From the NCBI GenBank assembly GCA_964654205.1, contig CAZZHR010000002.1:65800-129799 (forward strand): a DNA stretch of 64,000 bases, given 5' to 3'. The DNA comes from an uncultured Candidatus Saccharibacteria bacterium (GTDB lineage: Bacteria > Patescibacteriota > Minisyncoccia > Phycocordibacterales > UBA2100). A program made the position numbers and the translations under genes. The notes below the pieces were generated by a model. It did not search any database, was not told the DNA's origin, and saw only the letters and a program-made list of their open reading frames with translations. How positions within the stretch are numbered: position 1 is the stretch's first letter; every line of letters starts with the position of its first letter. Shown one piece after another: positions 9,142-62,805 of this stretch.

Positions 9142-9175
9142 AGGTGAGAGGTTAGAGTTGATAGTTTTTAGTTGA
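9141..9175 (+). repeat. direct repeat copy 1: TAGGTGAGAGGTTAGAGTTGATAGTTTTTAGTTGA
   Basis: About 29/35 identical to the copy at 9532-9566. It spans the stop codon and 3' end of the four-helix-bundle gene. Confidence 0.8.
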
Positions 9176-9598
9176 TAAGGGTGTACGCAACTTCCCGATA
9201 ATCGCCGTAAGCATTCGCTGTACTTCGTCGAGCAATTCGATGGATTTGGAGAAATCTATACTGGGAAAGAGCCGTTGCGCCGCGAGAAGCTGTGTTTCCA
9301 GCTCCGCGGCTGAACCAGCCGAGACGCATAAGAATTGCGCGTAATCCTTCCTTGTCCCCCTCTTTGTACCCTCGGCTATGTTTGAGGGGATTGATATTGC
9401 GGCGCGCCGCATCTGGCTCATCAGACCAAACTGCTCCGACTGTGGGAGTTTCGCGGTATCGCGGTACATCGTTTCGACAAGACTCATAGCCCTCTGCCAC
9501 ACGACCAAATCCTTGAAAGACCGCACAGGGGTAGGTGCGAGGTTAGAGTTTTTAGTTTTTAGGTTTGAGCTGTGTGTCGTTTTCATATTTCTTTTCAC
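9152..9598 (-). CDS. four-helix-bundle protein of the 23S rRNA intervening-sequence (S23-IVS) family
   Basis: FKDLVVWQRAMSLVETMY, SQMRRAAISIPSNIAEG and SAGSAAELETQLLAA are hallmark motifs. The start is GTG 9598 or ATG 9586. Confidence 0.85.
   Translation of the reverse strand: MKRNMKTTHSSNLKTKNSNLAPTPVRSFKDLVVWQRAMSLVETMYRDTAKLPQSEQFGLMSQMRRAAISIPSNIAEGTKRGTRKDYAQFLCVSAGSAAELETQLLAAQRLFPSIDFSKSIELLDEVQRMLTAIIGKLRTPLSTKNYQL
9532..9566 (+). repeat. direct repeat copy 2: TAGGTGCGAGGTTAGAGTTTTTAGTTTTTAGGTTT
   Basis: Lies in the 5' codons of the four-helix-bundle gene, 391 bp from copy 1. Confidence 0.8.
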
Positions 9599-10114: not shown

Positions 10115-13100
10115 CTAAATTTCCATCCCGAGCATGAGCGCGAGGGCTTGGACGAAGCTGTTTGATGTGGCGGCAGGGGCGGCAGAATATTTGAACGGCT
10201 GCTCCGCGAACGCGGCGTAGACCATTGTGTCGCCGCTCGTGTTGAGGAAGGTGGTTCTTAACTTGAAACCATTGGCTAGAGAATCAATGACGTCTGCGGG
10301 TGCCGACTCTTGAGACGAACCATCGGCGCCCAAAACGCCACTTATTGGATTGTAGGTGTTCCTTGTTGTATCCAACATCCACCAACTACCCGTCGTTCCA
10401 ACCGCGGGCTTAAGCATGACAAACCGCGGCTTGAAGCCGGTGTAGACGAACGGACCGTCGGTCGAGCCATTGCCGGTGTAGGAGCCAAATGCCGACATGC
10501 CGGTCGTGGAGGCAAAGAGGTACGCCGCGTACTCGCTCCCGCCACCTACGCCGCCCGGTGTGCTCGAGGAATCGGTGAGTGCGCCGTTCTCCGTAAATGC
10601 TCCGCCTCGCCCCCTGTTGATGTGCCAATTGTCGCTCGTTCCAGAGAAGTACACATCGGGGACGAGTGTGGAACCGACCCCGATGACGGGCACGGGTTCG
10701 CCATTCGCGTCGATGAAGAAGCGCCTATTGGCTTCGACCGAGAGGTCCAGGCTCGTCCCGAACTTTATCCAAAGGTCTTTGATGTCTCCCGTGAGCTTGA
10801 AGCCCGCGTCCGGTTCCGCCCCCACCGCGAAGTTGCCTCTCGTCCAGTCGATCGTGTCGTTGGTAAGCGTGGAGCCGCCCGAATTGAAGTCGCTCACATC
10901 GTTGCGGTAGACCCAGGCGGAGCCGGTGTTTAGGTCGACCGAGAAGAGGTAGTGCACCCAGCCACTCGAGGCGAGCGTCTGCGTCGAGGAGTTCAGGATC
11001 ATGTCGAAGTTGTTGGACGCGTCGAGCCCCACGACCTGGATCACCTGCGTACCCGCCGTGCGTACGATGTAGAAGCCCGTGCCGAGGTCTCCCGTCGCTG
11101 CGATCGTCTGGTTGGTGCTATCTGCGCCCGTAATGTTGACCCAAAAAGAGACAGTTAACCGTTTGCCGTCCACGACGTCTGTGAGGTTTGCACCGCGCGT
11201 GAGGTAATCGTTGGTACCGTCGAAATGCGCGGCGCCGCCTTTGTTCACATCGGCATTCGTCCCCACGGTGAAGGCGCTTGCGGTAGGCGCGGTGTCGTTC
11301 CAGTAGGTCGCGTCGTCGGCAGTCGCAGCTGTGCTGTTGAGCAATAGATAGTCAGTCGCCGGTGCAGATGTATTGGACGAGTGATAGACCGCCCAATCGC
11401 CGGAGCCCGAAGCTTGTGTGTACGAGCGGAGCATCGCGCTCCCCTGATCGGCGATCGCCACGCTTGTGGCAGAGAGCGCCGCAACCGCGGGGTTCGGAGT
11501 CGTGCCGTCGACGATACCGCTCCCGTCGGCCACCTCTCTCCAATCGGTACCGTCGAAGGCGTACACACGGAGCTCGTTGGTCGTTGAGTCCACGAATGCC
11601 ACTCTGTTGCGGCCCAGCGCCGCCATGCCCGTCGAGCCTCCACTCGATTCGATTGTGAGAGAATTGCCCACCTGAGACCAATTCGTGCCGTCGAAATCAT
11701 ACGCGCGCAGCTGCTTTGTCCCCGAGTAGTCGTAGAGGGCTACGCGCGAAGCCGAGAGCGCCGCGAGGGAAGGGAGTGTGATGCCGCTGATGTTGAGCTC
11801 GTTCCCAGTCAGAGTCCAGTTGGTGCCGTCGAAATCATACGCGCGCAAGTCGTCGTTGGTGCCGTCGATAAAGGCTATGCGGTCGGACAGGAGCCCCGCA
11901 AGCGCGGGAGATCCCACGCCCGAGATGTTGAGCTCGTTGCCGGTCAGCGACCATGTAGAGCCGTTGAAATCGTATGCGCGCAAGTCGTCATTCCCGCTGT
12001 CAATAAATGCGACACGGCTCGAAAGCATAGTTGCGAGCGAGGGCGACCCTATACCCGAGATGCTGAGTCCGCTTCCTGTGAGAGACCAATTCGACGAGCT
12101 CAGGTCGTATGCGCGCAAAGACGCATTCCCGAAATCAACATATGCCACCCTCGTCGCGGAGAGCGCGGCAAGCGCGGGAGTATTGATACCGCTTATCGTG
12201 AGGCTGTTGCTCGTCTGTGCCCAGTCTCCGCGCACCTCTTTCACGAGCATGAAGTCCGGCGCTTTACCGAGCGAATGGCTCACCGTCCTGCTCTTACCCG
12301 TCCCCTTGTACGAGACGATGTCGAACCCGGCCTCCGCCGTCTCTTTCCAGAGCCATGAGATGTAGTTCTTGCCGCTCGTGTTGACGTTGGCCGAGCTCGC
12401 GCCGGAGCCGAGGCTGAAGCCGTTGTCGTCGTACGACGTGAGCGATTCCGTGTCGTCGACATCTTCACCGGCGGTCAGATTGGAGCTGAGCCACGCCTGC
12501 ACCCCGCGCAGAGCATCGAAGAGCGCATGGTTGGTCGAAGCGTCGGTACGGTTCTTTATCCACACGAGGTCGGGGCTAAAGCCGGTAACCGTTGTGCTTG
12601 TACCCGTCTGGTAGACAGACTTTGCCGCACCCGTGCCTGCGTACGCGATCGCATCAAAATAATTCTTCGGCACCACCACATCCGGCTCGGGCAAGTTGGC
12701 GGTCGAGAGTGCTTTGAAGCCAGAGGGCGGTTCGTATCTGAAATATCCCCCCGCCGCCGAGTAGTGCGTCGTCGTAGTTGTCCCTGGCTGACCAAAGTTT
12801 ATTGAAGCGCTTGCACCCGTGTAGACGGCGAGTGATGGAAATACAGGGTCAGCTCCGCTGAGTGTGGCGGCAGCTCCTGTGCCTCCTACTGGGTCACCAC
12901 TGTTCTGCCATGTCCCGTTTTTTGAGAAGTAAATCTTCTTGTTATCCAAATCAAGCGCTACACCGACGACATCGTTCGTTGTAAACGTATTGCCGTACGC
13001 GGCATTGGTCCCTCCGTTGTACGTCGTACCATCATGCCCGTAGTAGCTGATGCCCCCATTAGCAGACGAGCCGCCGGGAAATGCGCCGAGTGTCATCGGA

Positions 13101-14242
13101 GTGAACGCTGTGGAAGTTGCAACCCCGACGAGATAAAAATTACTGCCACTACTCTGTGCACCAGCTGTCACTTCCCAATACCATTTACCACTCGTGACAC
13201 CAATAATTGAGAGTGCCGTAAGAAAATTCCCAGCACTATGAGTCATACTCAAGTTGCCTTGAGAAAGAGTCAGCGAAGAGTTTTTGTAAATCGAGTTAAG
13301 TGTCGCAAACGCGTTCGTCGGGGTGTCGATGACTTGGTCGGTTGCGTCGAGGTTGTTGGCGGTCCAGTTGTTGCCGTTGCCGGATGTGTCGGTGCCAAGC
13401 GCCGCACTGTTGCCAAAGGCGAGCTTGAAGCCATTTGTCCCATACGTGCCCGTGTACGACTTCGGCCGCCAGTATCCATTGGCGTCGTACTCGCCGAAAG
13501 AGGTGGGCGTGAGCGCCTGCCCGTCGACAAAATGTAGGTCGGAGAGGTAGACATCAATCGAGCAACATGCACCCCCTTGTTGCTGACCGATACGATTGTT
13601 CGCATTGGCGAGCGCGAATTGGTACTCAGCGTTTTGTGCGGGATAATTCGCAGCGTCAAACGCCGTAATCTGCATCCCATCGATGTACATCTTCACTCTA
13701 TTCGCTGCAGTCGCATCTGTCGTGTCCCACACAACTACGACATGCATCCATTTTGATGGATCGCGAAAAAGTGCCGAGCTGCGAAGTTCGGCGGAAGTAG
13801 CCCCGCCGAAGGCGAAACTCAGGTTGTCCGCTGCAGCGCCGCCCGCCCCGAATTCAAGCCACGAAGAATTGCTCGACGAACCATCGTAGCCGGCAACTAT
13901 CGTTTGTCTCGTCCCCAAATTCCCCCTTTTTATCCACGTAGATATCGTTCCCTTCTTACGGTCAGCGGGTGCACCGGAGAATGTCTTGCTTAGGTTTGCA
14001 CTGTCATCGTCGTTGAAGCGAGCGCTGTTCGCGATCGTGTACGCCGCCTCCGCCTGCGGGAGTGTGAGAAGCGCAAACTGCGCGCCAAACCACGCCAGCG
14101 CGACAATCGCCGCCACAACCACCCGCCACCTCCACAGCCCGTTCAAAGCGTTCAAGGAGGCGTGCAAGGGGCGCCCTTGCACATGTGCAAGGGCGCCCCT
14201 TGCGCCGGAGATTTTGAGAAACTTGGTGAAGAGATTACTCAT
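10115..14242 (-). CDS. giant (1375 aa) signal-anchored surface protein: LamG, SPRY, six 45-aa repeats, LamG, plus three copies of a phage-structural-protein-like module
   Basis: One uninterrupted ORF with an N-terminal TM (VVVAAIVALAWFGAQFALL). Its domain signatures are listed as separate features. Its start forms an ATGA overlap with the RAYT stop. Confidence 0.9.
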   Translation of the reverse strand: MSNLFTKFLKISGARGALAHVQGRPLHASLNALNGLWRWRVVVAAIVALAWFGAQFALLTLPQAEAAYTIANSARFNDDDSANLSKTFSGAPADRKKGTISTWIKRGNLGTRQTIVAGYDGSSSNSSWLEFGAGGAAADNLSFAFGGATSAELRSSALFRDPSKWMHVVVVWDTTDATAANRVKMYIDGMQITAFDAANYPAQNAEYQFALANANNRIGQQQGGACCSIDVYLSDLHFVDGQALTPTSFGEYDANGYWRPKSYTGTYGTNGFKLAFGNSAALGTDTSGNGNNWTANNLDATDQVIDTPTNAFATLNSIYKNSSLTLSQGNLSMTHSAGNFLTALSIIGVTSGKWYWEVTAGAQSSGSNFYLVGVATSTAFTPMTLGAFPGGSSANGGISYYGHDGTTYNGGTNAAYGNTFTTNDVVGVALDLDNKKIYFSKNGTWQNSGDPVGGTGAAATLSGADPVFPSLAVYTGASASINFGQPGTTTTTHYSAAGGYFRYEPPSGFKALSTANLPEPDVVVPKNYFDAIAYAGTGAAKSVYQTGTSTTVTGFSPDLVWIKNRTDASTNHALFDALRGVQAWLSSNLTAGEDVDDTESLTSYDDNGFSLGSGASSANVNTSGKNYISWLWKETAEAGFDIVSYKGTGKSRTVSHSLGKAPDFMLVKEVRGDWAQTSNSLTISGINTPALAALSATRVAYVDFGNASLRAYDLSSSNWSLTGSGLSISGIGSPSLATMLSSRVAFIDSGNDDLRAYDFNGSTWSLTGNELNISGVGSPALAGLLSDRIAFIDGTNDDLRAYDFDGTNWTLTGNELNISGITLPSLAALSASRVALYDYSGTKQLRAYDFDGTNWSQVGNSLTIESSGGSTGMAALGRNRVAFVDSTTNELRVYAFDGTDWREVADGSGIVDGTTPNPAVAALSATSVAIADQGSAMLRSYTQASGSGDWAVYHSSNTSAPATDYLLLNSTAATADDATYWNDTAPTASAFTVGTNADVNKGGAAHFDGTNDYLTRGANLTDVVDGKRLTVSFWVNITGADSTNQTIAATGDLGTGFYIVRTAGTQVIQVVGLDASNNFDMILNSSTQTLASSGWVHYLFSVDLNTGSAWVYRNDVSDFNSGGSTLTNDTIDWTRGNFAVGAEPDAGFKLTGDIKDLWIKFGTSLDLSVEANRRFFIDANGEPVPVIGVGSTLVPDVYFSGTSDNWHINRGRGGAFTENGALTDSSSTPGGVGGGSEYAAYLFASTTGMSAFGSYTGNGSTDGPFVYTGFKPRFVMLKPAVGTTGSWWMLDTTRNTYNPISGVLGADGSSQESAPADVIDSLANGFKLRTTFLNTSGDTMVYAAFAEQPFKYSAAPAATSNSFVQALALMLGMEI
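10748..11236 (-). other. second LamG/concanavalin-like (Laminin_G_3-type) domain, aa ~1003-1165
   Basis: AAHFDGTNDYL...LTVSFWVN...GWVHYLFSVDLNTGSAWVYRND...FAVGAE fits the Laminin_G_3 pattern. Confidence 0.65.
11408..12217 (-). repeat. six tandem in-frame ~135-bp (45-aa) repeats, likely a beta-propeller
   Basis: Unit consensus LRAYDFDGTNW(S/T)LTGNELNISG(I/V)GSPSLAALSxxRVAFxDxxNDx. The GAAATCRTAYGCGCGCA motif recurs about every 135 nt on the plus strand. Confidence 0.85.
12788..13345 (-). other. SPRY/B30.2-like domain, aa ~300-485
   Basis: The TSGKWYWEV signature, then VVGVALDLDNKKIYFSKNG and FPSLAVYTGASASINFG, match the SPRY pattern. Confidence 0.7.
13508..14035 (-). other. first LamG/concanavalin-like domain, aa ~70-245
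   Basis: GTISTWIKR...WMHVVVVWDTT...VKMYIDG...SDLHFVDGQAL fits the Laminin_G_3 pattern. Confidence 0.65.
14163..14204. repeat. REP-like palindrome doublet: TGCAAGGGGCGCCCTTGCA-CATG-TGCAAGGGCGCCCCTTGCg
   Basis: Two 19-nt near-palindromes (8-bp stems) in inverted orientation form a 42-nt palindrome. It lies within codons 13-27 of the 1375-aa ORF, 35 nt downstream of the RAYT stop. Confidence 0.85.
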
Positions 14243-14901
14243 ACTTCGTCGAGCATTAATTCTCGGACTGTCGATTTCCGTGCGACGATGTCGTCGAAAG
14301 CGTCTTCAACGAAACGCTGGTACTCGCGCGCACTCTTGAAGTGCTCAAGGATTGTTGCCGTATCACACAATCCCCCGGTATCTGGCGAGAGGTACTCGGC
14401 ATAGCTACTATGCGGCCACTTTCGAGCGTCTCGCACAAGCTTCGCCACTTGGGGATTCACATGAATATAGGCCGAGAGGTGTTTGAGTTGCGTATCGTCT
14501 ACCACATGCACGGCCTTGATGCGATCCTGAAATACATGTCCCACATGATCGTACTTGCGATTGAAGTACATCGAGTAGCTCGTCAGTAGTTTCAGAAAAA
14601 GTTTACTAATCGATACATCTTTGTTCTGTCGTATGAGAAAATGGAAATGATTAGGCATAAGACAGTACACAGCAATCGAGAATGCATCTCTTTCGAATGG
14701 CTCGATGCGAATCTGGACGCGCTTCCCGCCGGTGTGCAAGGGCGCCCCTTGCACATCGCGACCGAGAGAGCGCATAAGTCGGTCTAGGAAAACTCGTGCA
14801 TCCTCATCATCTCGAAGGATGTCCATCTTGCCATTGCCGCGGCTGAAGAGGTGGTACCACTCTCCTGTCGAGAACTCTTTGTAGTCGCGTGAATTTGTCA
14901 T
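14239..14901 (-). CDS. REP-associated tyrosine transposase (RAYT) / IS200-like Y1 transposase homolog
   Basis: WYHLFSRGN, the HUH motif CLMPNHFHFLI, GHVFQDR and YIHVNP (catalytic Tyr region). There is no second IS gene. Confidence 0.85.
   Translation of the reverse strand: MTNSRDYKEFSTGEWYHLFSRGNGKMDILRDDEDARVFLDRLMRSLGRDVQGAPLHTGGKRVQIRIEPFERDAFSIAVYCLMPNHFHFLIRQNKDVSISKLFLKLLTSYSMYFNRKYDHVGHVFQDRIKAVHVVDDTQLKHLSAYIHVNPQVAKLVRDARKWPHSSYAEYLSPDTGGLCDTATILEHFKSAREYQRFVEDAFDDIVARKSTVRELMLDEV
14735..14753. repeat. third copy of the REP-like palindrome, inside the RAYT ORF and in frame
   Basis: TGCAAGGGCGCCCCTTGCA on the plus strand. It encodes VQGAPLH between the N-terminal strand and the HUH motif. 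Confidence 0.85.
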
Positions 14902-14911
14902 ACTCGATTAG

Positions 14912-17900
14912 TCATCTAAAGCCCGTGGCAGCCGCGCCGAATACGACGAGCGAGCTGGTCGCATTGGTCGCGACAAATGAGACGAGGTCACATTGGTTGG
15001 CCGTCGTGGTGAGTGTCGGTGCGCTTCCACCCTGCCAGCGCACGACCGCTGGCCAGGTCAGTGTGCGGCTTCCCGTGCCGTCTTGGCACACCACGAGACG
15101 GAGGATTTGCCCCGCGATGAAATTGGAGAATGTAATCGTGCGGTTGCCGCCGAGTGTCACCTTCTGCTGGTTGCCTTCAAGCCAGTTGATAGCCACGGTC
15201 GCGCCGTCGGAGAGACTCCTTTCCACCGTGGTGATAGCGCCACCCGCACCCACCGCAAATTTCGCAAACGGCGTCGATGTACCCACACCCACGTTGCCGT
15301 TGGCGTTGATGACAAAGAGGGACTGCGCTGTGGTGGAAGCGACCTGTATGAAGTTGGTCGAGCTATCCTGCGTCTCTATCGTGAGCTTGGCCGCAGGGGT
15401 CGTGGTGCCGATTCCTGCCGCTGTCTCTACATAGAGCTTGCCCGCTCCAGTCGGCGACGTGGGGCAGCCGGATGCGCAGACAAGGAGGTTGTCGTCGGAG
15501 AGCAGAATGTTTTTGTTGGACGTGTGTATCGTAAGGTCGCCAGTCGAGTCCACTTGGAGCGAGGCGACCGTGGAATCATTGTACGAAATCGCTACCTGAG
15601 GATTCGCCGCTGCAGCCGTCACCGAGAACTTGCGGTACGGCGATGTGGTGCCGACACCGAAGAATCCGGCACTCGTGGCGCGCATCACCTCGGTGAGCGC
15701 GCCACTTTGCAGTGTCGAGAACACGAGGTCGCCCTTCCCGAGCCCGCCGAAGTTCTGTTGCAAGATGCTCGTGATTGCAGAAGTCGTCGTACCCGTGCCG
15801 GTGACATCGAGCGCGCGGAATGAGAGCCGCGATGCGGTCGATGTCGCGCTCGCCGCATTGGTGAGGTAGAGCTGGTCGGCGGTCGCGCCGGAAGATGTGT
15901 TGTAGACATCGAGCTTCGTGCCCGGCGTCGTCGTACCGATGCCGACATTGCCCGTGCTGGTGATGCGCATTCGCTCTTGGCTCGACTCATATCCACCAGT
16001 CCTAAACTGAATACTGTCGGAGCCGCCTGATGCAACATTCCCGTTGGTAAAGAGCACCAGACTAGTATTCGAACCGAAACTCGTGTTTCCGCCGAGACCG
16101 TATCCGACACCAGACCCGTACGCACGGAAGTAGCCTGTCGCAGTATCGCTATGTACAGTGTATGTGCTCTGACCATTGCTATTTGCATTCGTCACCGTGA
16201 CCCCGTCGACGCTCGCTACATTGCTGTACACAGTGAGTTTTGTAGACGGAGTCGTCGTCCCTACCCCCACGTTGCCGGTGTTTGTCACCGCAAAGAGCGA
16301 GCTCGTCGCGCTCGCGGTCGAGCTCGCTATCTCGAAGAGCATCGTATTGGTCTCGCCCGACAGTGCGTGCACTGAGAGCTTAGCCCACGGCGACGACGTG
16401 CCGATACCGAAGCGCGCATTGACCGTATCCCACGTGAGCGTACTCGACGCCGCCATCACGCCGCCGTAGTTGAATTGTATGTTGCCGTTGCCGCCTGCCG
16501 GAGCCGAGCCGCCGGATGCGAGGAGGGAGCCGGAGAAGTATGTGTAGACTGCCGAACCATCGACAGCTGTACCCGTTGAAAGCACCGCTGCTTCGAGATA
16601 GTCGGATGTTCCATTCATGTCGACAATGGTGGTTACTTGCGCCGCATCTGCACCACCCGATCGATAGGGACCGTTTGCTATCGCGACACCGTTCTTACGG
16701 ACAGCTGCCTGACAGTTGTTTGTGGTATTTGTACATCCAACAGACGCGACAACGATATACTTGCCGGCTACCGTAGGTGTGAAGCGGTTGGTCGTTAGGT
16801 CAAAATTGTTGTTGGTATCGTAAGTTTCAGTCGTCCAATCGACCACAAGTACCGTATCGCTCACAGTGGTTGTCGCCGACCCATTGCGATGCACATGGAA
16901 CGCTACCGTAGAAGAAGCGGTTCCAACCGTGCGGTTCGTGTAGACCTTGACCGCGAATCCGCCTGCGCCGCCTGCGCCGCCTGCGCCTCCAGTGCCCGCA
17001 TTTCCAGCGCTACCCCCGGAGCCAACGGTGAAATAGAAAGTCCCCGTCGGACTGCCTACAAGCTCGTACGCGTATCCTCCGCCTCCACCTCCGCCTCCAC
17101 TCCATACGTTGTTGAGATCATTGATTCCGCCGCCAGCCCCTCCTCCTCCGAACGCGTTGCCTGCGCCGCCTGCTGCCGTAGTACCCGCTCCGCCACCCCC
17201 ACCGCGGGCACCATTGCCCCCCGCTCCTCCCACTGCGTACAGATCTTGCGTCTCCCCACCATCCGCATCAATACCAAGCGTGAGTCCGCCTGCACCACCA
17301 ACGAGATTTACTTCGCCACCGGAGCCAGAACCGCCAGATGCCGCAGGCCCATTGGAGCCAGACCCACCGCCTCCGCCCGTCGCACTTAAGTGCGGAGAGG
17401 AGCATGCGACAGAATTGCTTCCGAAGCATGTCGTACCTCCTACGCCACCATTGCCGCCGTTGCCTCCACCGCCACCCCCTCCACCGCCGCCCCAAACCTC
17501 CACTTCTATATATGACGTATCGCTCGGGAGCGTGAGCGTGCCACCGGAGAAGCTCGGTGCGCTGCCGGGGTCTCCGGTGAAGACCACCGACGAGGTTCCC
17601 ACAGTGGAAGTCGCGTATGTTCCTATGAGCGTGTTGCCACCACCTCCGCCTCCACTCGAGCCGCTCCCCGTCCCCGCACACTGTCCGCTCGGGAGCAGGA
17701 AGCAGCCGCTCGTGAGTTGGACGCCACCCGCAAAGGTGGATGTTGCCGAGCCGGTGATATTGAGGAGTGTTGATTGAATGCCGCCAGAGAATGTTGTGGT
17801 GGAAGGCGACCCAAACGTCGCTGCGCCGGTGGATGCCGAGAACGAGAGCGCGGCTACCGTAGAAGTCGACGAGTGCGTCGAGGTGGCGAGGTAGAAGGTG

Positions 17901-20900
17901 CTGCCGATGTTGCGGAGTGTCCAGAGATTGCTGCCGAGCCCGTCCGAGAGCGCGAGCTGCGGACCTGTCGAGCTCGCGACCGTAAGAATATGGTACGGTG
18001 TCGTCGTACCGATGCCGAACGTACCGTTGAAATAGCCGAGACCGTTGTCGAGAATGCGGAAGCGCGTCGTCGAGGCGGAGTCGAAGAATTCCGTGAGTAT
18101 GCCCGTGCCCGTCCCAGATCCCTGCACTGAGAGCTTAGCCCACGGTGACGTGGTGCCGATTCCGACGTTGCCCGTCGAACCCTGAATGAGCATTCTCGTC
18201 GCGTAACTCCCGGCCGTTGCGTTGGCCTTGAAATGGAGGTCGCCATTGTTGCCCGTCTGCCCTATCTCCGCCCAGCCCGTGCCAGTACCCGCGCCGCCGG
18301 TCGTGAATATCATGCTGCCGACGTTGCCTGTACCGGCTCTGTTGAGGAAGAGTCGGAAGTCGCCCGACGTGTCAAAGGCCGCACTCGTACCGAAGACGTC
18401 GAGCTTACTCCCCGGCGTCGTCGTACCGATTCCCACGCTGCCGGTGCTCTTTACCGCCAAAAGGTCACCGCCGGATCCGCTCGATGAGTTGAGCTGCAAG
18501 AGGTCCGCGCTGGAACCGGTATGAAGACTTCCAACGATGACGGGCTTCGCGATGTCGTGCTCGTTGTAGATGTTGAAGATACCTGTAAAGGTCGGGGAGG
18601 TTTTGCCAAAACCGATCTCCCCCGTGGGACTGACGATGAAGGCGTTGACGCCGTCGGTCCTGTTCTGGAAGAAGAGCGCCCCAGCAGGAGTATTGCCGCT
18701 ATCCCCCGCGAGGAAGCCCCATTTCTTACCGCCGGAGTCCGTATTCTGGAGATTGAACCACGGATCGCTGCCGCTCACATGGAACTTCGCGTCGCTTGAA
18801 GCTGCGCCCACGCCGAGCAGACCCTGCACGAGTAGGTTACCTGTCGTCGTCGCGCCGCCTGAGATCGTGAGGCCGCCCGCCTGTGTGCCGTCGCCGATGG
18901 TGGAACTTGCTGTGACACCGAGGCCGCCAGTTACAGCGAGTGTGGTCCACGGACTTACGTTGCCGATACCGACACTTCCACCACCGCTTTGAAGGACGAG
19001 ATTATTCCATGCACCGGCACCGCTGCTCTGTGCGCTGAGTCCAAAATAAGTATTGCCCGTGCTCGCGCCCGACGCTACAAAGAGCACCGAACCGGCTGAA
19101 CCAGAGACCCAATCGCTCGTCGTTATCGCAAGTTGTGAAGGCGCATTACCGCCAGTAATTTGCAACTTACCGTTGGTCGGACTCGCCGTGCCGATACCGA
19201 AGTTGCCGCTGATGCGGTCGACGAAGACGAGCGGCGAGGAGGTACCGACGGTAAAGAGCGAGGTCGATGGCGGCGTCGATGTGCCGACGGCGAGACCGCC
19301 GGAGGCGATTGTGCTCGTCGCCGTCGTCGAAGTGGCGACGAAATATGAAGCGTCGACGAATGACGTAAAGCGAGCATTGCCACTAACGTGAAGCTTATAG
19401 GTGGGAGAGGTATTACCTATACCTACAGAGCCAGCTGTATTGAGGAACAATAAGTCTGTCGCCGCGGCGCCCGTGCTGATGGAAAATCCAGAGCTATCGT
19501 TACCACTGATTCCGACTTTCCATTCTGGAGTCGTACCGCTTCTGACAAAGCTGACATTCGGTGCCACATTTCCGTTTATCAAAATTCCTTGATACGTCGT
19601 TCCTGCAGTCACATGGAGTGGCTGCTGCGGATTTGTTGTTCCAATTCCAACCCGACCGCTTGGGTTCCAAATGCCGGAGCCCGGGAAGAATGCGGTGCCA
19701 GAGACAGAGAGCGCGGTTGAGGACGCATACGGGAACGTGGACGCTGCTGTGGTAGAAGTCGCAGTGAAGATTGGCGCGGTGATGGTGTTGTATGCGGTGA
19801 GTGCGCCGCGCAGGAGTGAGCTGCCCGCGACTGAGAGGTTTCCGCTTGAGTCGATGGTCGTCGTCGCGCTGCCGCCGAAGTACGCAGTGCCAAAGTTGGA
19901 GAAGTTAGTACTCGACGCATTCCCCGAGAATATCTGGAGCGCCGTCCAGTTGTTGGAGACACTTGTGTCCACGGAGCCCCCACCGCCCGTGATACAAGCA
20001 CCGTCTACGGCAAAGCATCCGTCGGCGAGGTTTATTCCATTGGCAAATGTGGTAGTAGCCGAGCCGGTAAAGGTAATATCGCTCAGCGTAGTCCCAGAAA
20101 GGGTACCGCCCGTAATCGTCGAGTCGGAGATATCGACGCTGCTGAGCTGATCGATTTTGTTTGTGTGCGCGACCGTCTGATACACATTGGTAATACTTGC
20201 CGACTGCGCTGTAGAGACACCGGCGACGAGGCTTGTGAGTCGCTGTTCCACGGCTGCGATCCGCGTATCGAGGTCGGCATCCGTGATGCCGCCGACAGAT
20301 GCAACTATGCGCTCGGTCTCGACGATACGTTCAACGACTCGTTCGTTTGTCACCACAGTCGATGTGCTCACAACAACAGGCGTTTGCTGCGATTGCGCTA
20401 CGATAACCTGTGCGCGTTCATACGGATCCATCGTGTCGATGAATCCCGCATCGAGCGGTGTAAGTGCGAGCGAGTTCGTCGCGTCACTCGGGAACACGAT
20501 GTTGTAGACGAACGTGTCGACGCTCGTGTTGACTGCCTTCGCGATGGTGCGCAGCGCATCAGGGAAGAAAGAAAGTGTCGCGCTCGATACTTGTGCGAGC
20601 GCGACCTCGGGATTCTCAACCGCATAGTACGTCGCATCACTCGCCGCGCGCACCGCGCGCGTCGCCACTTCATCAACTCGTACGAGCGACTGCGCGACGC
20701 TCGCCGCCATCTCGCGCGTAGTCTCCGCTGCAAACCGCGCATAGGCTGGGTCGACAAACGCATACGTGCCAAATGTCATGGTGAACGCAACGAGCATCGC
20801 GACAAACTTCTGCAGAAACTCCGTCGCGGGAGAAATCGTGTACACCGGCACGTGCACATGTGCGTGACTCAAAGTACGAGCAACCGCCTCGTGCACGCCC

Positions 20901-21349
20901 GACGGCGCCGCTGCGATAGACGGCATCGCGTGAGCGACCTTCGCGCTCTGCGCCACCGCCGCAGCCTTCAATTTTTCCTGCACATGCTTCGCGTGCGCCG
21001 CCAACGTCTTCGTCACAGGTATTTGTCCGCTCACAGAAAGGGCGCTCTCGACACTCTTTACACTTTCAGATTTCAACTTTATATCTTGTGGCTTATTCTC
21101 CACCCCGTGATATTCACGCACCCGTTCATCCGACAGCTGCTCCCTGCGGATGGTTTTCGCATGCTCTTGCTCCACGAGGTATTTTTGGAGCGAGCCCTCA
21201 TCGACGTACCAGTTCTTGCCGATTCTTCTACCGCGAAGCCTTCCATCACGGCAAAGACGAGCGATGTAGTCGCGAGAGAGCCCTGCACTGGATGAAGCAT
21301 CCCCGGCCGAGAGGTGCTTCTGCCCGTCGAAATATATTTCGTTGCTCAT
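14912..21349 (-). CDS. giant (2145 aa from ATG 21349) membrane protein: cytoplasmic excisionase-type HTH, one TM, then an ectodomain of GIGTTxP repeats, a glycine-rich domain and a C1q-like domain
   Basis: One uninterrupted ORF. Modules are listed separately. I prefer ATG 21349 (MSNEIYFDG) over GTG 21430 because the paralogous module in the next gene starts at the same relative position. Confidence 0.9.
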   Translation of the reverse strand: MSNEIYFDGQKHLSAGDASSSAGLSRDYIARLCRDGRLRGRRIGKNWYVDEGSLQKYLVEQEHAKTIRREQLSDERVREYHGVENKPQDIKLKSESVKSVESALSVSGQIPVTKTLAAHAKHVQEKLKAAAVAQSAKVAHAMPSIAAAPSGVHEAVARTLSHAHVHVPVYTISPATEFLQKFVAMLVAFTMTFGTYAFVDPAYARFAAETTREMAASVAQSLVRVDEVATRAVRAASDATYYAVENPEVALAQVSSATLSFFPDALRTIAKAVNTSVDTFVYNIVFPSDATNSLALTPLDAGFIDTMDPYERAQVIVAQSQQTPVVVSTSTVVTNERVVERIVETERIVASVGGITDADLDTRIAAVEQRLTSLVAGVSTAQSASITNVYQTVAHTNKIDQLSSVDISDSTITGGTLSGTTLSDITFTGSATTTFANGINLADGCFAVDGACITGGGGSVDTSVSNNWTALQIFSGNASSTNFSNFGTAYFGGSATTTIDSSGNLSVAGSSLLRGALTAYNTITAPIFTATSTTAASTFPYASSTALSVSGTAFFPGSGIWNPSGRVGIGTTNPQQPLHVTAGTTYQGILINGNVAPNVSFVRSGTTPEWKVGISGNDSSGFSISTGAAATDLLFLNTAGSVGIGNTSPTYKLHVSGNARFTSFVDASYFVATSTTATSTIASGGLAVGTSTPPSTSLFTVGTSSPLVFVDRISGNFGIGTASPTNGKLQITGGNAPSQLAITTSDWVSGSAGSVLFVASGASTGNTYFGLSAQSSGAGAWNNLVLQSGGGSVGIGNVSPWTTLAVTGGLGVTASSTIGDGTQAGGLTISGGATTTGNLLVQGLLGVGAASSDAKFHVSGSDPWFNLQNTDSGGKKWGFLAGDSGNTPAGALFFQNRTDGVNAFIVSPTGEIGFGKTSPTFTGIFNIYNEHDIAKPVIVGSLHTGSSADLLQLNSSSGSGGDLLAVKSTGSVGIGTTTPGSKLDVFGTSAAFDTSGDFRLFLNRAGTGNVGSMIFTTGGAGTGTGWAEIGQTGNNGDLHFKANATAGSYATRMLIQGSTGNVGIGTTSPWAKLSVQGSGTGTGILTEFFDSASTTRFRILDNGLGYFNGTFGIGTTTPYHILTVASSTGPQLALSDGLGSNLWTLRNIGSTFYLATSTHSSTSTVAALSFSASTGAATFGSPSTTTFSGGIQSTLLNITGSATSTFAGGVQLTSGCFLLPSGQCAGTGSGSSGGGGGGNTLIGTYATSTVGTSSVVFTGDPGSAPSFSGGTLTLPSDTSYIEVEVWGGGGGGGGGGNGGNGGVGGTTCFGSNSVACSSPHLSATGGGGGSGSNGPAASGGSGSGGEVNLVGGAGGLTLGIDADGGETQDLYAVGGAGGNGARGGGGGAGTTAAGGAGNAFGGGGAGGGINDLNNVWSGGGGGGGGYAYELVGSPTGTFYFTVGSGGSAGNAGTGGAGGAGGAGGFAVKVYTNRTVGTASSTVAFHVHRNGSATTTVSDTVLVVDWTTETYDTNNNFDLTTNRFTPTVAGKYIVVASVGCTNTTNNCQAAVRKNGVAIANGPYRSGGADAAQVTTIVDMNGTSDYLEAAVLSTGTAVDGSAVYTYFSGSLLASGGSAPAGGNGNIQFNYGGVMAASSTLTWDTVNARFGIGTSSPWAKLSVHALSGETNTMLFEIASSTASATSSLFAVTNTGNVGVGTTTPSTKLTVYSNVASVDGVTVTNANSNGQSTYTVHSDTATGYFRAYGSGVGYGLGGNTSFGSNTSLVLFTNGNVASGGSDSIQFRTGGYESSQERMRITSTGNVGIGTTTPGTKLDVYNTSSGATADQLYLTNAASATSTASRLSFRALDVTGTGTTTSAITSILQQNFGGLGKGDLVFSTLQSGALTEVMRATSAGFFGVGTTSPYRKFSVTAAAANPQVAISYNDSTVASLQVDSTGDLTIHTSNKNILLSDDNLLVCASGCPTSPTGAGKLYVETAAGIGTTTPAAKLTIETQDSSTNFIQVASTTAQSLFVINANGNVGVGTSTPFAKFAVGAGGAITTVERSLSDGATVAINWLEGNQQKVTLGGNRTITFSNFIAGQILRLVVCQDGTGSRTLTWPAVVRWQGGSAPTLTTTANQCDLVSFVATNATSSLVVFGAAATGFR
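16517..16906 (-). other. C1q/TNF-like jelly-roll domain (130 aa)
   Basis: VAFHVHRNG...FDLTTNRFTPTVAGKYIVVASV...AAVRKNGVAIANG...VDMNGTSDYLEAAV...YTYFSGSLLA follows the C1q globular-domain pattern (F.A...F...G.FT.P..G.Y.F...KNG...L..GD.V...F.G.LL). Confidence 0.6.
16940..17515 (-). other. glycine-rich domain of the type seen in phage minor-tail / ALK-like Gly_rich proteins
   Basis: Opens with IEVEVWGGGGGGGGGGNGGNGG, has internal EVNLVGGAGG and FYFTVGSGGSAGNAGTGGAGG, and closes with GGFAVKVY. Confidence 0.6.
21173..21349 (-). other. excisionase-type (HTH_17-like) module at the N-terminus of the giant protein
   Basis: IYFDGQKHLSAGDASSSAGLSRDYIARLCRDGRLRGRRIGKNWYVDEGSLQKYL fits the pattern of HTH_17, a MerR-superfamily helix-turn-helix (hEaA..lGvs..ti.rl.r.G.l....iG..w.i....l..yl). 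Confidence 0.6.
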
Positions 21350-21650
21350 GAGCGATGATGCCTGTGGCCGGACGCACGATTTATCTAATATTCTACTACT
21401 CTTTTCGCCAATTGGACGTGTATCGGACACTATTACGTGTGGACAAGCCTAAGCAGAATTTGTACCGGACATTTTTTACATTTTTTCCCACAAGTTCGTA
21501 TCAACGCACAAAAAATTCTCCGTTTTTTTGAAAAAAAGCCTCTTCACTACAACCTCTCACCTCTTACCTACCCCCCTCCTCCCGGCCGACTCGGGCATCC
21601 GAGGAGCGACGTAGAGCGGTATTCCGCGCGTGTGTGGCGCAGAAAATGAA

Positions 21651-62768: not shown

Positions 62769-62805
62769 CCTCCCATGAGTGACCTCGTAGGTCACTCATG
62801 GGAGG
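62769..62805 (-). terminator. 16-bp perfect hairpin: CCTCCCATGAGTGACC/GGTCACTCATGGGAGG
   Basis: A 5-nt loop, 19 nt downstream of the rsmI stop. The arm TCACTCATGGG is repeated once more at 62806-62816. No T-tract. Confidence 0.5.

Follow-up and report, generated by a model that had tools for sequence, protein, structure and literature searches.

We describe here a 64-kb stretch of bacterial DNA (contig CAZZHR010000002.1, positions 65,800–129,799 of the forward strand; hereafter the window), in which a gene of the REP-associated tyrosine transposase type (RAYT; REP, repetitive extragenic palindrome) carries a REP-like hairpin inside its own coding sequence. The open reading frame (ORF) is intact and resembles TnpA_REP of Escherichia coli, and the same hairpin lies both inside this ORF and, as an inverted doublet, 3' of its stop codon. 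Judged from comparison with homologous loci, the internal and flanking hairpins evolve in concert, with compensatory changes in their stems. Our preferred reading, to which we give a probability of roughly 0.55, is that the locus is a compact REPtron, consisting of a single-copy, vertically inherited RAYT-type nuclease and its cognate hairpin, with in-frame REPs at permissive sites. The features of the gene and its hairpins are as follows, in window coordinates.

14239..14901, (−) strand: intact RAYT-type (TnpA_REP-like) HUH/Y1 nuclease gene, 220 amino acids (aa), assigned from Pfam, NCBIfam, PDB and Foldseek comparisons
14641..14649, (−) strand: HUH codons H85-F86-H87, from the translation; columns invariant in a 37-sequence alignment (A1)
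14467..14469, (−) strand: codon of the presumed catalytic Tyr145 (YIHVNP), from the translation; Y145, H147, N149 and P150 invariant in A1
14733..14755: in-ORF REP ('site 1'); the coding strand reads TGTGCAAGGGGCGCCCTTGCACA, a 23-nt palindrome whose 10-bp stem closes a 3-nt loop
14735..14753: in-ORF 19-mer, exact reverse complement
14164..14203: REPIN-like (REPIN, REP doublet forming hairpin) perfect palindrome of 40 nt, two inverted REPs with a CATG spacer, codons 14–27 of a 1375-aa ORF
14186..14204: REP unit nearest the RAYT stop, 35 nt past it; reverse complement with 1 mismatch to the 19-mer
14163..14181: exact copy of the 19-mer; the doublet's second REP unit, in inverted orientation

The sequence-only reading of this DNA had taken the 220-aa ORF for a RAYT-type transposase with intact HUH and Tyr-region motifs, and both points were upheld. 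The translation contains HFHFLI (residues 85–90) and YIHVNP (residues 145–150), in agreement with A1, and motifs, Pfam and a structural model all gave what characterizes the RAYT/TnpA_REP class, namely HUH and a single Tyr within a Y1 transposase fold (Pfam Y1_Tnp, E = 4e-9, beginning only at residue 70). The sole NCBIfam match was REP_Tyr_transpos (NF047646, E = 5.6e-14, residues 70–165 only), and a profile of 37 homologs searched against the PDB gave a single sequence match, E. coli TnpA_REP (4ER8, E = 4e-4). The AlphaFold (AF2) model of the protein (predicted local distance difference test, pLDDT = 87.3) had 4ER8 as its top Foldseek match (E = 2.4e-6, template modelling score 0.70), with ISDra2 and IS608 ranked lower. 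By PDB sequence, Foldseek and NCBIfam comparison alike, the protein was closer to TnpA_REP than to TnpA of IS200/IS605, and on this sequence and model evidence it is a divergent TnpA_REP relative, not an equivalog of the E. coli protein. By tblastn it matched itself alone within the window. Homologs numbered 810, and those bearing a source name were from Patescibacteria (Paceibacterota, Doudnabacteria, Yanofskybacteria). Together with the gene content, these names make it probable that the source is an ultra-small bacterium of the candidate phyla radiation (CPR).

The recurring element is a 19-mer (TGCAAGGGGCGCCCTTGCA; 15-nt hairpin core, CAAGGGSSSCCCTTG) with an 8-bp stem and a GCG loop. It had been reported to occur three times, once inside the RAYT ORF, and a search allowing mismatches returned these positions, all three within 600 bp, with no copy at up to 3 mismatches elsewhere in the window (chance expectation 0.01; 0/100 shuffles gave as many). 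The site-1 REP lies between the conserved RAYT N-terminus and HUH, 29 codons upstream of the latter, and encodes VQGAPLH (residues 50–56); the doublet reads ARGALAHVQGRPLH, both translations being as previously given. The doublet had been described as a 42-nt palindrome at 14163–14204 covering codons 13–27 of the 1375-aa ORF; the palindrome is real and in frame, but its perfect part is 40 nt, as T14163 and G14204 are not complementary, and its codon span is 14–27. As single-stranded DNA (ssDNA), the in-ORF hairpin folds with −13.5 kcal/mol (z = −3.3) and the doublet with −28 kcal/mol (z = −7.6 and −8.7 on the two strands).

In structure the element is a REP, i.e. a GC-rich palindrome with an 8–10-bp stem, a 3-nt loop and an inverted 40-nt doublet, and it flanks the RAYT gene as a cognate REP/REPIN, 35 nt past the stop in the window and also 5' of the gene in relatives. 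It is not extragenic, one copy lying inside the RAYT ORF and the doublet in a frame that is open in 4 lineages. It has the properties of a Rickettsia palindromic element (RPE) in that the palindrome is in frame, the RAYT ORF is intact and conserved motifs lie on both sides.

Two side observations concern the palindrome as DNA. The 23-nt palindrome at 14733–14755 and its reverse complement are stop-free in all six frames; the reading frame alone constrains its insertion into coding DNA. Variants GTCAAGGG...CCCTTGAC in relatives create TGA in one frame. In addition, two Logan contigs of the source (SRR15237804/6) end inside the doublet (L007:2114–2182 and L008:911–979; L-numbers denote loci or contigs carrying relatives, and P-numbers homologous RAYT proteins). 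Since both stop there, the palindrome breaks these short-read assemblies.

Conservation of the locus and its hairpins

The closest informative relative, P0002 on L009 (RAYT 69% identical in protein; contigs up to 853 kb), has the gene order of the window: giant gene, RAYT, giant gene with a DUF7483 domain, S26 peptidase and GAPDH. The giant neighbour proteins are 41–42% identical between the two (41% for the downstream, DUF7483 one), and the gene preceding the L009 RAYT shows homology to the C-terminus of the 2172-aa ORF that precedes the window RAYT. L009 has the exact 19-mer at the same three places, in the RAYT loop and as a perfect CATG-spaced doublet just past the stop. The DNA of the two loci is 62.6% identical over 1109 aligned nt, and the three longest identical runs are the REP copies; the probability of 19 consecutive identities at this divergence is ~1e-4. 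An additional doublet occurs in L009 at the 5' end of the S26 gene, and the whole 6.4-kb giant gene is there bracketed by two doublets.

L009, L100/101 and L102 all show the order giant gene–RAYT–DUF7483 giant gene–S26 peptidase, and synteny of the RAYT gene is conserved among relatives with 52–69% identity. At 60–66% identity the core CAAGGG-SSS-CCCTTG is kept, and the outer stem is lineage-specific yet complementary (TGCAAGGG/CCCTTGCA in the window and L009, GTCAAGGG/CCCTTGAC in L098 and L100, CTCAAGGG/CCCTTGAG in L102, GCCAAGGG/CCCTTGGC in L104). Loci of the Doudnabacteria type (L015/L016, 45–50% identity) have a different synteny, TrmB-RAYT-UvrB, and a hairpin, GCAAGAGGG-TGC-CCCTCTTGC, that occupies the homologous loop, lies once just before the ATG and forms a doublet past the stop. 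Metagenome relatives with 32–40% identity have unrelated hairpins (e.g. TGACAGGGTCTCGCCCTGTCA, CTTTCGGGAGACTCCCGAAAG, ACCTGCGAGGACTGTCCTCGCAGGT and GCCTGCAGGGCCAGGCCCTGCAGGC), each found upstream of, inside and downstream of its own RAYT gene. Lineage-specific hairpins occupied the site-1 loop in L015, L018, L021, L046, L059, L080, L082, L084, L098, L100, L102, L104 and L105, and copies upstream of the gene occurred in L015, L018, L046, L059, L080, L082, L084, L104 and L105. The internal hairpin thus has the sequence of the copies flanking the same RAYT gene, and this sequence differs among lineages. A 'recent REP invasion' peculiar to the source genome, one of the possibilities raised before, does not fit, because the internal hairpin is found across the clade and changes together with the flanking copies. 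As a side observation, the RAYT gene of L104 (1362–2021, 52% identical) adjoins GAPDH-RpiB-N_methyl-RPE-transketolase and has no giant genes, which indicates that giant genes were gained or lost between RAYT and GAPDH in the lineage.

The same comparisons bear on whether the locus is an ordinary mobile insertion of the IS200/IS605 type, which had recently landed between the giant genes and whose ends are the palindromes. The Y1_Tnp domain and the secondary fold matches to IS608 and ISDra2 TnpA would agree with this, but the gene occupies the same position in genomes whose RAYT is 69% and whose neighbour proteins are 41–42% identical, its best relative is TnpA_REP and not an IS200 TnpA, one 'end' would fall inside the ORF, and a single palindrome is found inside and flanking in place of distinct left and right ends. 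A standard IS200 copy had been named beforehand as an outcome that would overturn the RAYT interpretation; what was found is a gene that is single-copy in the window and in conserved chromosomal synteny in the 52–69% relatives. That the ORF is such an insertion sequence is highly improbable, and we rejected this identity.

We then evaluated the interior copies statistically. Among 58 distinct RAYT relatives (200-nt flanks), 24 had a 12-mer or longer word common to the ORF interior and the flanks, and the interior matches fell into two clusters, site 1 at 20–38 codons before HUH and site 2 at 73–81 codons after it. The first control for this count (45/330) was crude, including spurious and REP-bearing ORFs, and was superseded by a hairpin-based test, in which a perfect interior hairpin had to equal a flank hairpin; 11 of 62 RAYT ORFs passed compared with 5 of 365 control ORFs, i.e. 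other long, non-overlapping ORFs of the same loci (Fisher p = 6e-7). Hairpin copies were concentrated at the gene (3–5 within 300 nt of each RAYT vs 15 distal copies in ~259 kb of flanking DNA). In an ungapped alignment of ten site-1 hairpins (A3; a MAFFT alignment of 12 hairpins, A2, had introduced gaps), 92% of cells were paired vs 66% in shuffles and double-sided changes were seen at 8 of 10 pairs, a count that is partly circular because the hairpins were picked for being hairpins. L046, L080 and L084 have four copies (upstream, site 1, site 2 and downstream) spaced ~200-300-200 nt apart, in direct orientation in L080 and L084. Site 2 corresponds to the loop after the Tyr helix (L046, L080, L084/L085 and others), and the window RAYT has no copy there. 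In E. coli K-12 rayT, no 10-mer was common to the ORF interior and the REP-bearing flanks.

It is the DNA and not the peptide that recurs, as the palindrome is translated in all three frames and both orientations. For instance, one orientation is read as CAA GGG GCG CCC TTG in the window, CCA AGG GGC GCC CTT in L104 and AAG GGG CGC CCT in L018. A palindrome-derived tetrapeptide was present in the site-1 loop of 51 of the 115 closest homologs having both anchor motifs, in 8 frame/orientation versions (GAPL 20, RGAL 16, RAPL 9, GRPL 7, RGTL 6, RVPL 1, KGRP 1, KGAP 1). The VQGAPLH segment, for which an alignment check had been proposed, turned out to be part of a ~25-aa insertion relative to E. 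coli TnpA_REP. In the AF2 model, this segment is a permissive, low-confidence loop (residues 51–60, mean pLDDT 57) following helix 32–45. Loops of close relatives hold one or two copies, the orientation may be flipped and the reading frame differs; P0004 and P0006, for example, are identical downstream of HUH with remodelled loops.

These data also address the explanation that the peptide QGAPLH is a conserved functional motif and the DNA palindrome incidental. GAPL-type motifs do stand at the same alignment position in many homologs. Against this, the palindrome is translated in 8 frame/orientation versions at the site-1 loop, distant relatives carry unrelated peptides there from unrelated hairpins, the same DNA outside the ORF reads ARGALA...QGRPLH, and the loop is of low confidence in the model. 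The sequence-only reading would have been overturned by conservation of the peptide in homologs lacking the palindrome; in every relative with DNA examined, the motif is accompanied by the palindrome, which is read in varying frames. A peptide motif is therefore extremely unlikely, and the hypothesis was rejected on the frame and orientation versions and the unrelated peptides of distant relatives.

A further observation was made on the loci of P0004 and P0006 (L102 and L107). L102:806–1430 is 100% identical to L107 over ~625 bp, from just after HUH to the RAYT stop, through the REP doublet and ~80 codons of the DUF7483 gene, in loci that are otherwise 55–85% identical. L107 has its own outer stem at the site-1 REP but the L102-type downstream doublet. 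Either recent recombination or an assembly chimeric between strains accounts for the block. REPs were considered as recombination breakpoints and rejected, the block boundaries not being at a REP.

Possible roles of the internal hairpin

In the compact REPtron that we favour, the enzyme would bind the hairpin on ssDNA and cut and rejoin beside it, by analogy with E. coli TnpA_REP, whose biochemistry is known (PMC3479197, PMC6006769). REPs would be copied or converted preferentially near the RAYT gene and beside existing REPs, and where genes are densely packed a copy would survive only if it were in frame and at a permissive place. Such places would be, in RAYT itself, the loop that leads from helix 1 to the HUH strands and, in the neighbouring membrane protein, the N-terminal tail. 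The internal copy would then be a member of the REP population, kept uniform through turnover or gene conversion, and any effect on RAYT expression would be secondary.

Besides the circularity of the covariation count, several points weigh against this reading. No further copy of the 19-mer occurred in the other 62.7 kb of the window or in ~14 kb adjoining it, so the high dispersed copy number expected of a REP, which had been anticipated earlier, is not seen over ~77 kb of the source and proliferation is unsupported here. (A scan of a genome contig collection without the source genome gave 6 single matches, with ~4 expected by chance.) The 5' GT[AG]G (or CGTC) tag of REPs is absent, the flanks reading (T/C)G-hairpin-CA, which merely lengthens the stem. 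The RAYT protein scored 52.2 bits against NF047646, below the equivalog cutoff of 80, and its N-terminal alignment is interrupted by the site-1 insertion. Binding and cleavage of the hairpin by the RAYT protein are themselves inferred by analogy. Finally, a neutral 'permissive loop' model taken alone leaves unexplained that all 11 CAAGGG-type lineages examined (window, L009, L098, L100, L102, L104, L105, L107, L015, L016 and L018) have the site-1 copy, and that the in-ORF copies are among the best-formed hairpins.

It is possible, on balance doubtful, that in this probable CPR clade the RAYT gene and its cognate hairpin form one co-evolving whole. Besides the flanking copies, the hairpin would then belong to the gene at two fixed internal positions, one on either side of the catalytic core, and make up a self-targeting circuit. 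If true, this would mean autoregulation of a genotoxic nuclease via its own substrate or, alternatively, a master REP copy locked inside the enzyme gene, making enzyme and repeat inseparable; either form of the circuit would be a REPtron architecture not described for RAYTs.

Another proposal, which we consider rather unlikely, is that the internal hairpin is a selected autoregulatory operator, bound in the gene or mRNA by RAYT or a host factor to keep expression of the potentially genotoxic nuclease low. Its further element, that the hairpin is kept at fixed sites bracketing the catalytic core and co-evolves with enzyme specificity, seems unlikely to the same degree. An operator would account for the site-1 hairpin in all 11 of these distinct lineages, for the restriction to two interior positions (−20 to −38 and +73 to +81 codons from HUH), for the regular four-copy spacing in L046, L080 and L084, for upstream copies that abut the start codon (the L015 hairpin ends a few nt before the ATG) and for the longest perfect stems, which are often in in-ORF copies. 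On the other hand, some clade members (e.g. P0060, P0073 and P0093) have short loops that lack palindrome-derived motifs altogether, showing that the element is dispensable. Orientation, frame and copy number also vary, as they need not for a fixed operator, and G.U wobble pairs on the sense strand are not in excess (11 vs 11) and so give no pointer to selection on the mRNA strand.

The doublet and the neighbouring genes

The RAYT gene stands between two giant genes on the same strand, as listed below.

14912..21430, (−) strand: upstream giant gene of up to 2172 aa; GIGTTTP-type repeats and, at the N-terminus, a weak match to HTH_17
14902..14911, (−) strand: 10-nt spacer between the stop of the upstream giant ORF (14912) and the RAYT ATG, with no REP in it
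14239..14242, (−) strand: ATGA overlap of the RAYT stop TGA (14239–14241) and the ATG of the 1375-aa ORF (14240–14242)
10115..14242, (−) strand: downstream giant gene, 1375 aa, with SPRY and DUF7483 domains, from domain matches

The coordinates agree with the 10-nt gap upstream and the ATGA overlap downstream described before. The N-terminal tail of the 1375-aa ORF comprises the REP doublet followed by a transmembrane (TM)/signal segment and the conserved AAYTIANSARF. The window, L009, L100 and L102 each have an ATG at the RAYT stop or adjoining it; its frame is open through the REPs, whether these form a CATG-spaced doublet, a single unit or a TTA-spaced doublet, and continues to a conserved WRxRV, a hydrophobic segment and AAYTIANSARF, while the other two frames have stops. 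With a probability of ~0.25 per lineage for ~38 stop-free codons, this comparison is moderate evidence that the REPs are translated, forming an N-terminal tail of the downstream giant protein. L102 has an alternative ATG past the REPs, so that the stop-adjacent ATG is a putative start. An in-frame GTG (codon 21) had been suggested as the true start; it is an unlikely one, being placed at the tip of the 20-bp hairpin, and the frame is open from the stop-adjacent ATG in the four lineages.

The position of the doublet raises the explanation that the hairpins are mainly RNA elements of the operon, serving as mRNA stabilisers or a processing site independently of RAYT catalysis. The doublet forms a 20-bp perfect stem exactly between two co-oriented, overlapping ORFs and would be a plausible substrate for a double-strand-specific RNase that uncouples RAYT from the giant gene; REPs act as RNA elements downstream of ORFs in other bacteria (PMC3733652), and copies lie at the 5' ends of the L009 S26 peptidase gene, the L100 LamG gene and the L004 803-aa ORF. 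However, an Rfam search of the whole window gave no family, and a promoter/terminator scan of 13800–15300 gave no match, the doublet having no U-tract and not being a canonical intrinsic terminator. There is no wobble strand bias, and the placement of the hairpin at fixed RAYT loops and the tracking of the RAYT lineage by its sequence would be left unexplained. We regard a main role in RNA, whether as stabiliser or as RNase substrate, as improbable.

The hairpin family was also seen within the first 5–200 nt of ORFs other than RAYT, namely those of an S26 signal peptidase (L009:17104–17142), a LamG protein (L100:5183–5270 and 5992) and an 803-aa membrane protein (L004:4326–4393 and 4534; Ca. 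Yanofskybacteria, with no RAYT nearby). The hairpins could belong to N-terminal tails that precede TM segments, or the starts could be mis-called.

The window is chromosomal, the neighbours of the RAYT gene being housekeeping genes; GAPDH, S26 signal peptidase, GatB, SecA and a split transketolase are encoded in it. The 1375-aa protein matched phrog_19943 'virion structural protein' (E = 4.9e-161) and a tail-fiber phrog (4.5e-53), and the 2172-aa protein matched tail-fiber phrogs (~1e-13); although the window is chromosomal, the giant ORFs may encode surface or attachment proteins with domains common to phage fibres. A 23S rRNA intervening-sequence protein (PF05635, E = 1e-31) is encoded at 9152–9598 (−), directly after the S26 peptidase gene, and in L102 these two domains were called as one product. 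The window has two unrelated perfect inverted repeats, at 1959–1992 and 62769–62805, one with 17-nt arms and no spacer (GTACCGATTCCTATCTA/TAGATAGGAATCGGTAC) and the other with 17-nt arms and a 3-nt spacer (CCTCCCATGAGTGACCT/AGGTCACTCATGGGAGG).

Comparison with known systems

REPIN/RAYT is the main example of a domesticated transposase living with non-autonomous repeats, and control of the enzyme and benefit to the host are open questions. The internal hairpin offers a natural handle on self-regulation of RAYTs and on the cis-preference of REP copying. It also extends RAYT/REP biology to what are probably members of the CPR/Patescibacteria, and points to a route by which genomes very dense in genes can retain palindromic repeats, namely in frame within floppy loops and N-terminal tails. 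In practice, the hairpins break assemblies and distort gene-start calls and domain-model scores.

The E. coli REPtron consists of rayT (yafM, TnpA_REP; structure 4ER8) with flanking REPs and bacterial interspersed mosaic elements (BIMEs) (PMC3479197; Quentin et al. 2018, PMC6006769). The window locus is like it in the HUH/Y1 fold, in the chromosomal gene (single-copy in the window) and in the adjoining GC-rich cognate hairpins including an inverted doublet, and unlike it in the copy inside the ORF, the lack of the GT[AG]G tag and the presence of just 3 hairpin copies in ~77 kb. Compared with E. coli TnpA_REP, the window protein is ~55 aa longer, with the ~25-aa insertion before HUH and a C-terminal helical extension, and it falls below the NCBIfam equivalog cutoff. 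The REPIN-RAYT systems of Pseudomonas and enterobacteria (Bertels & Rainey 2011, PMC3116915; Bertels et al. 2017, PMC5581495) have a vertical single-copy RAYT, as the window gene appears to be from its single copy in the window and its synteny, and likewise a flanking inverted REP doublet and a hairpin of their own for each RAYT lineage. In those papers, however, REPINs are located in extragenic flanks at hundreds of copies, whereas here they are few, at the gene and in coding sequence.

Overlap with the gene is described for TIRYT/TIRtrons and for REPs at RAYT gene ends (Di Nocera et al. 2013, PMC3733652). There too, the inverted repeats on either side of RAYT-like genes are of the non-GTAG kind and have a low or moderate copy number, and some of them overlap the 5' or 3' end of the gene; in our case a short self-complementary hairpin is also found deep in the ORF, at two fixed loops. 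The part of the intragenic-REP tables of PMC3733652 available to us has no transposase entry. In the literature searched, we came across neither a RAYT gene described as having a REP at conserved interior positions (Nunvar 2010, Bertels 2017 and Quentin 2018 gave no mention of an internal copy) nor a paper linking RAYTs to CPR, which is not proof of absence in either case.

Intragenic REPs and RPEs are found in frame in functional genes (PMC3733652). They resemble the present hairpins in being palindromic repeats tolerated in frame, frequently at N-termini and sometimes as dimers. RPEs are ~100–150 bp long and have no known dedicated enzyme gene, whereas here the element is 19–23 nt and the host gene is that of its own presumed enzyme; moreover, the insertion sites are here conserved across the clade while the hairpin sequence changes. 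TnpA of IS200/IS605 (IS608, ISDra2) would share with the window protein the Y1 HUH chemistry on ssDNA hairpins. The window locus differs in being syntenic and in having one copy of the gene in the window; it does not move as a unit and lacks separate left and right ends.

Taken together, intragenic REPs and REPs overlapping RAYT gene ends are already described (PMC3733652). What is new here is that, in a clade of related genes, the presumed substrate of the enzyme lies inside the enzyme's own coding sequence, at two conserved positions, with a sequence that tracks the flanking copies.

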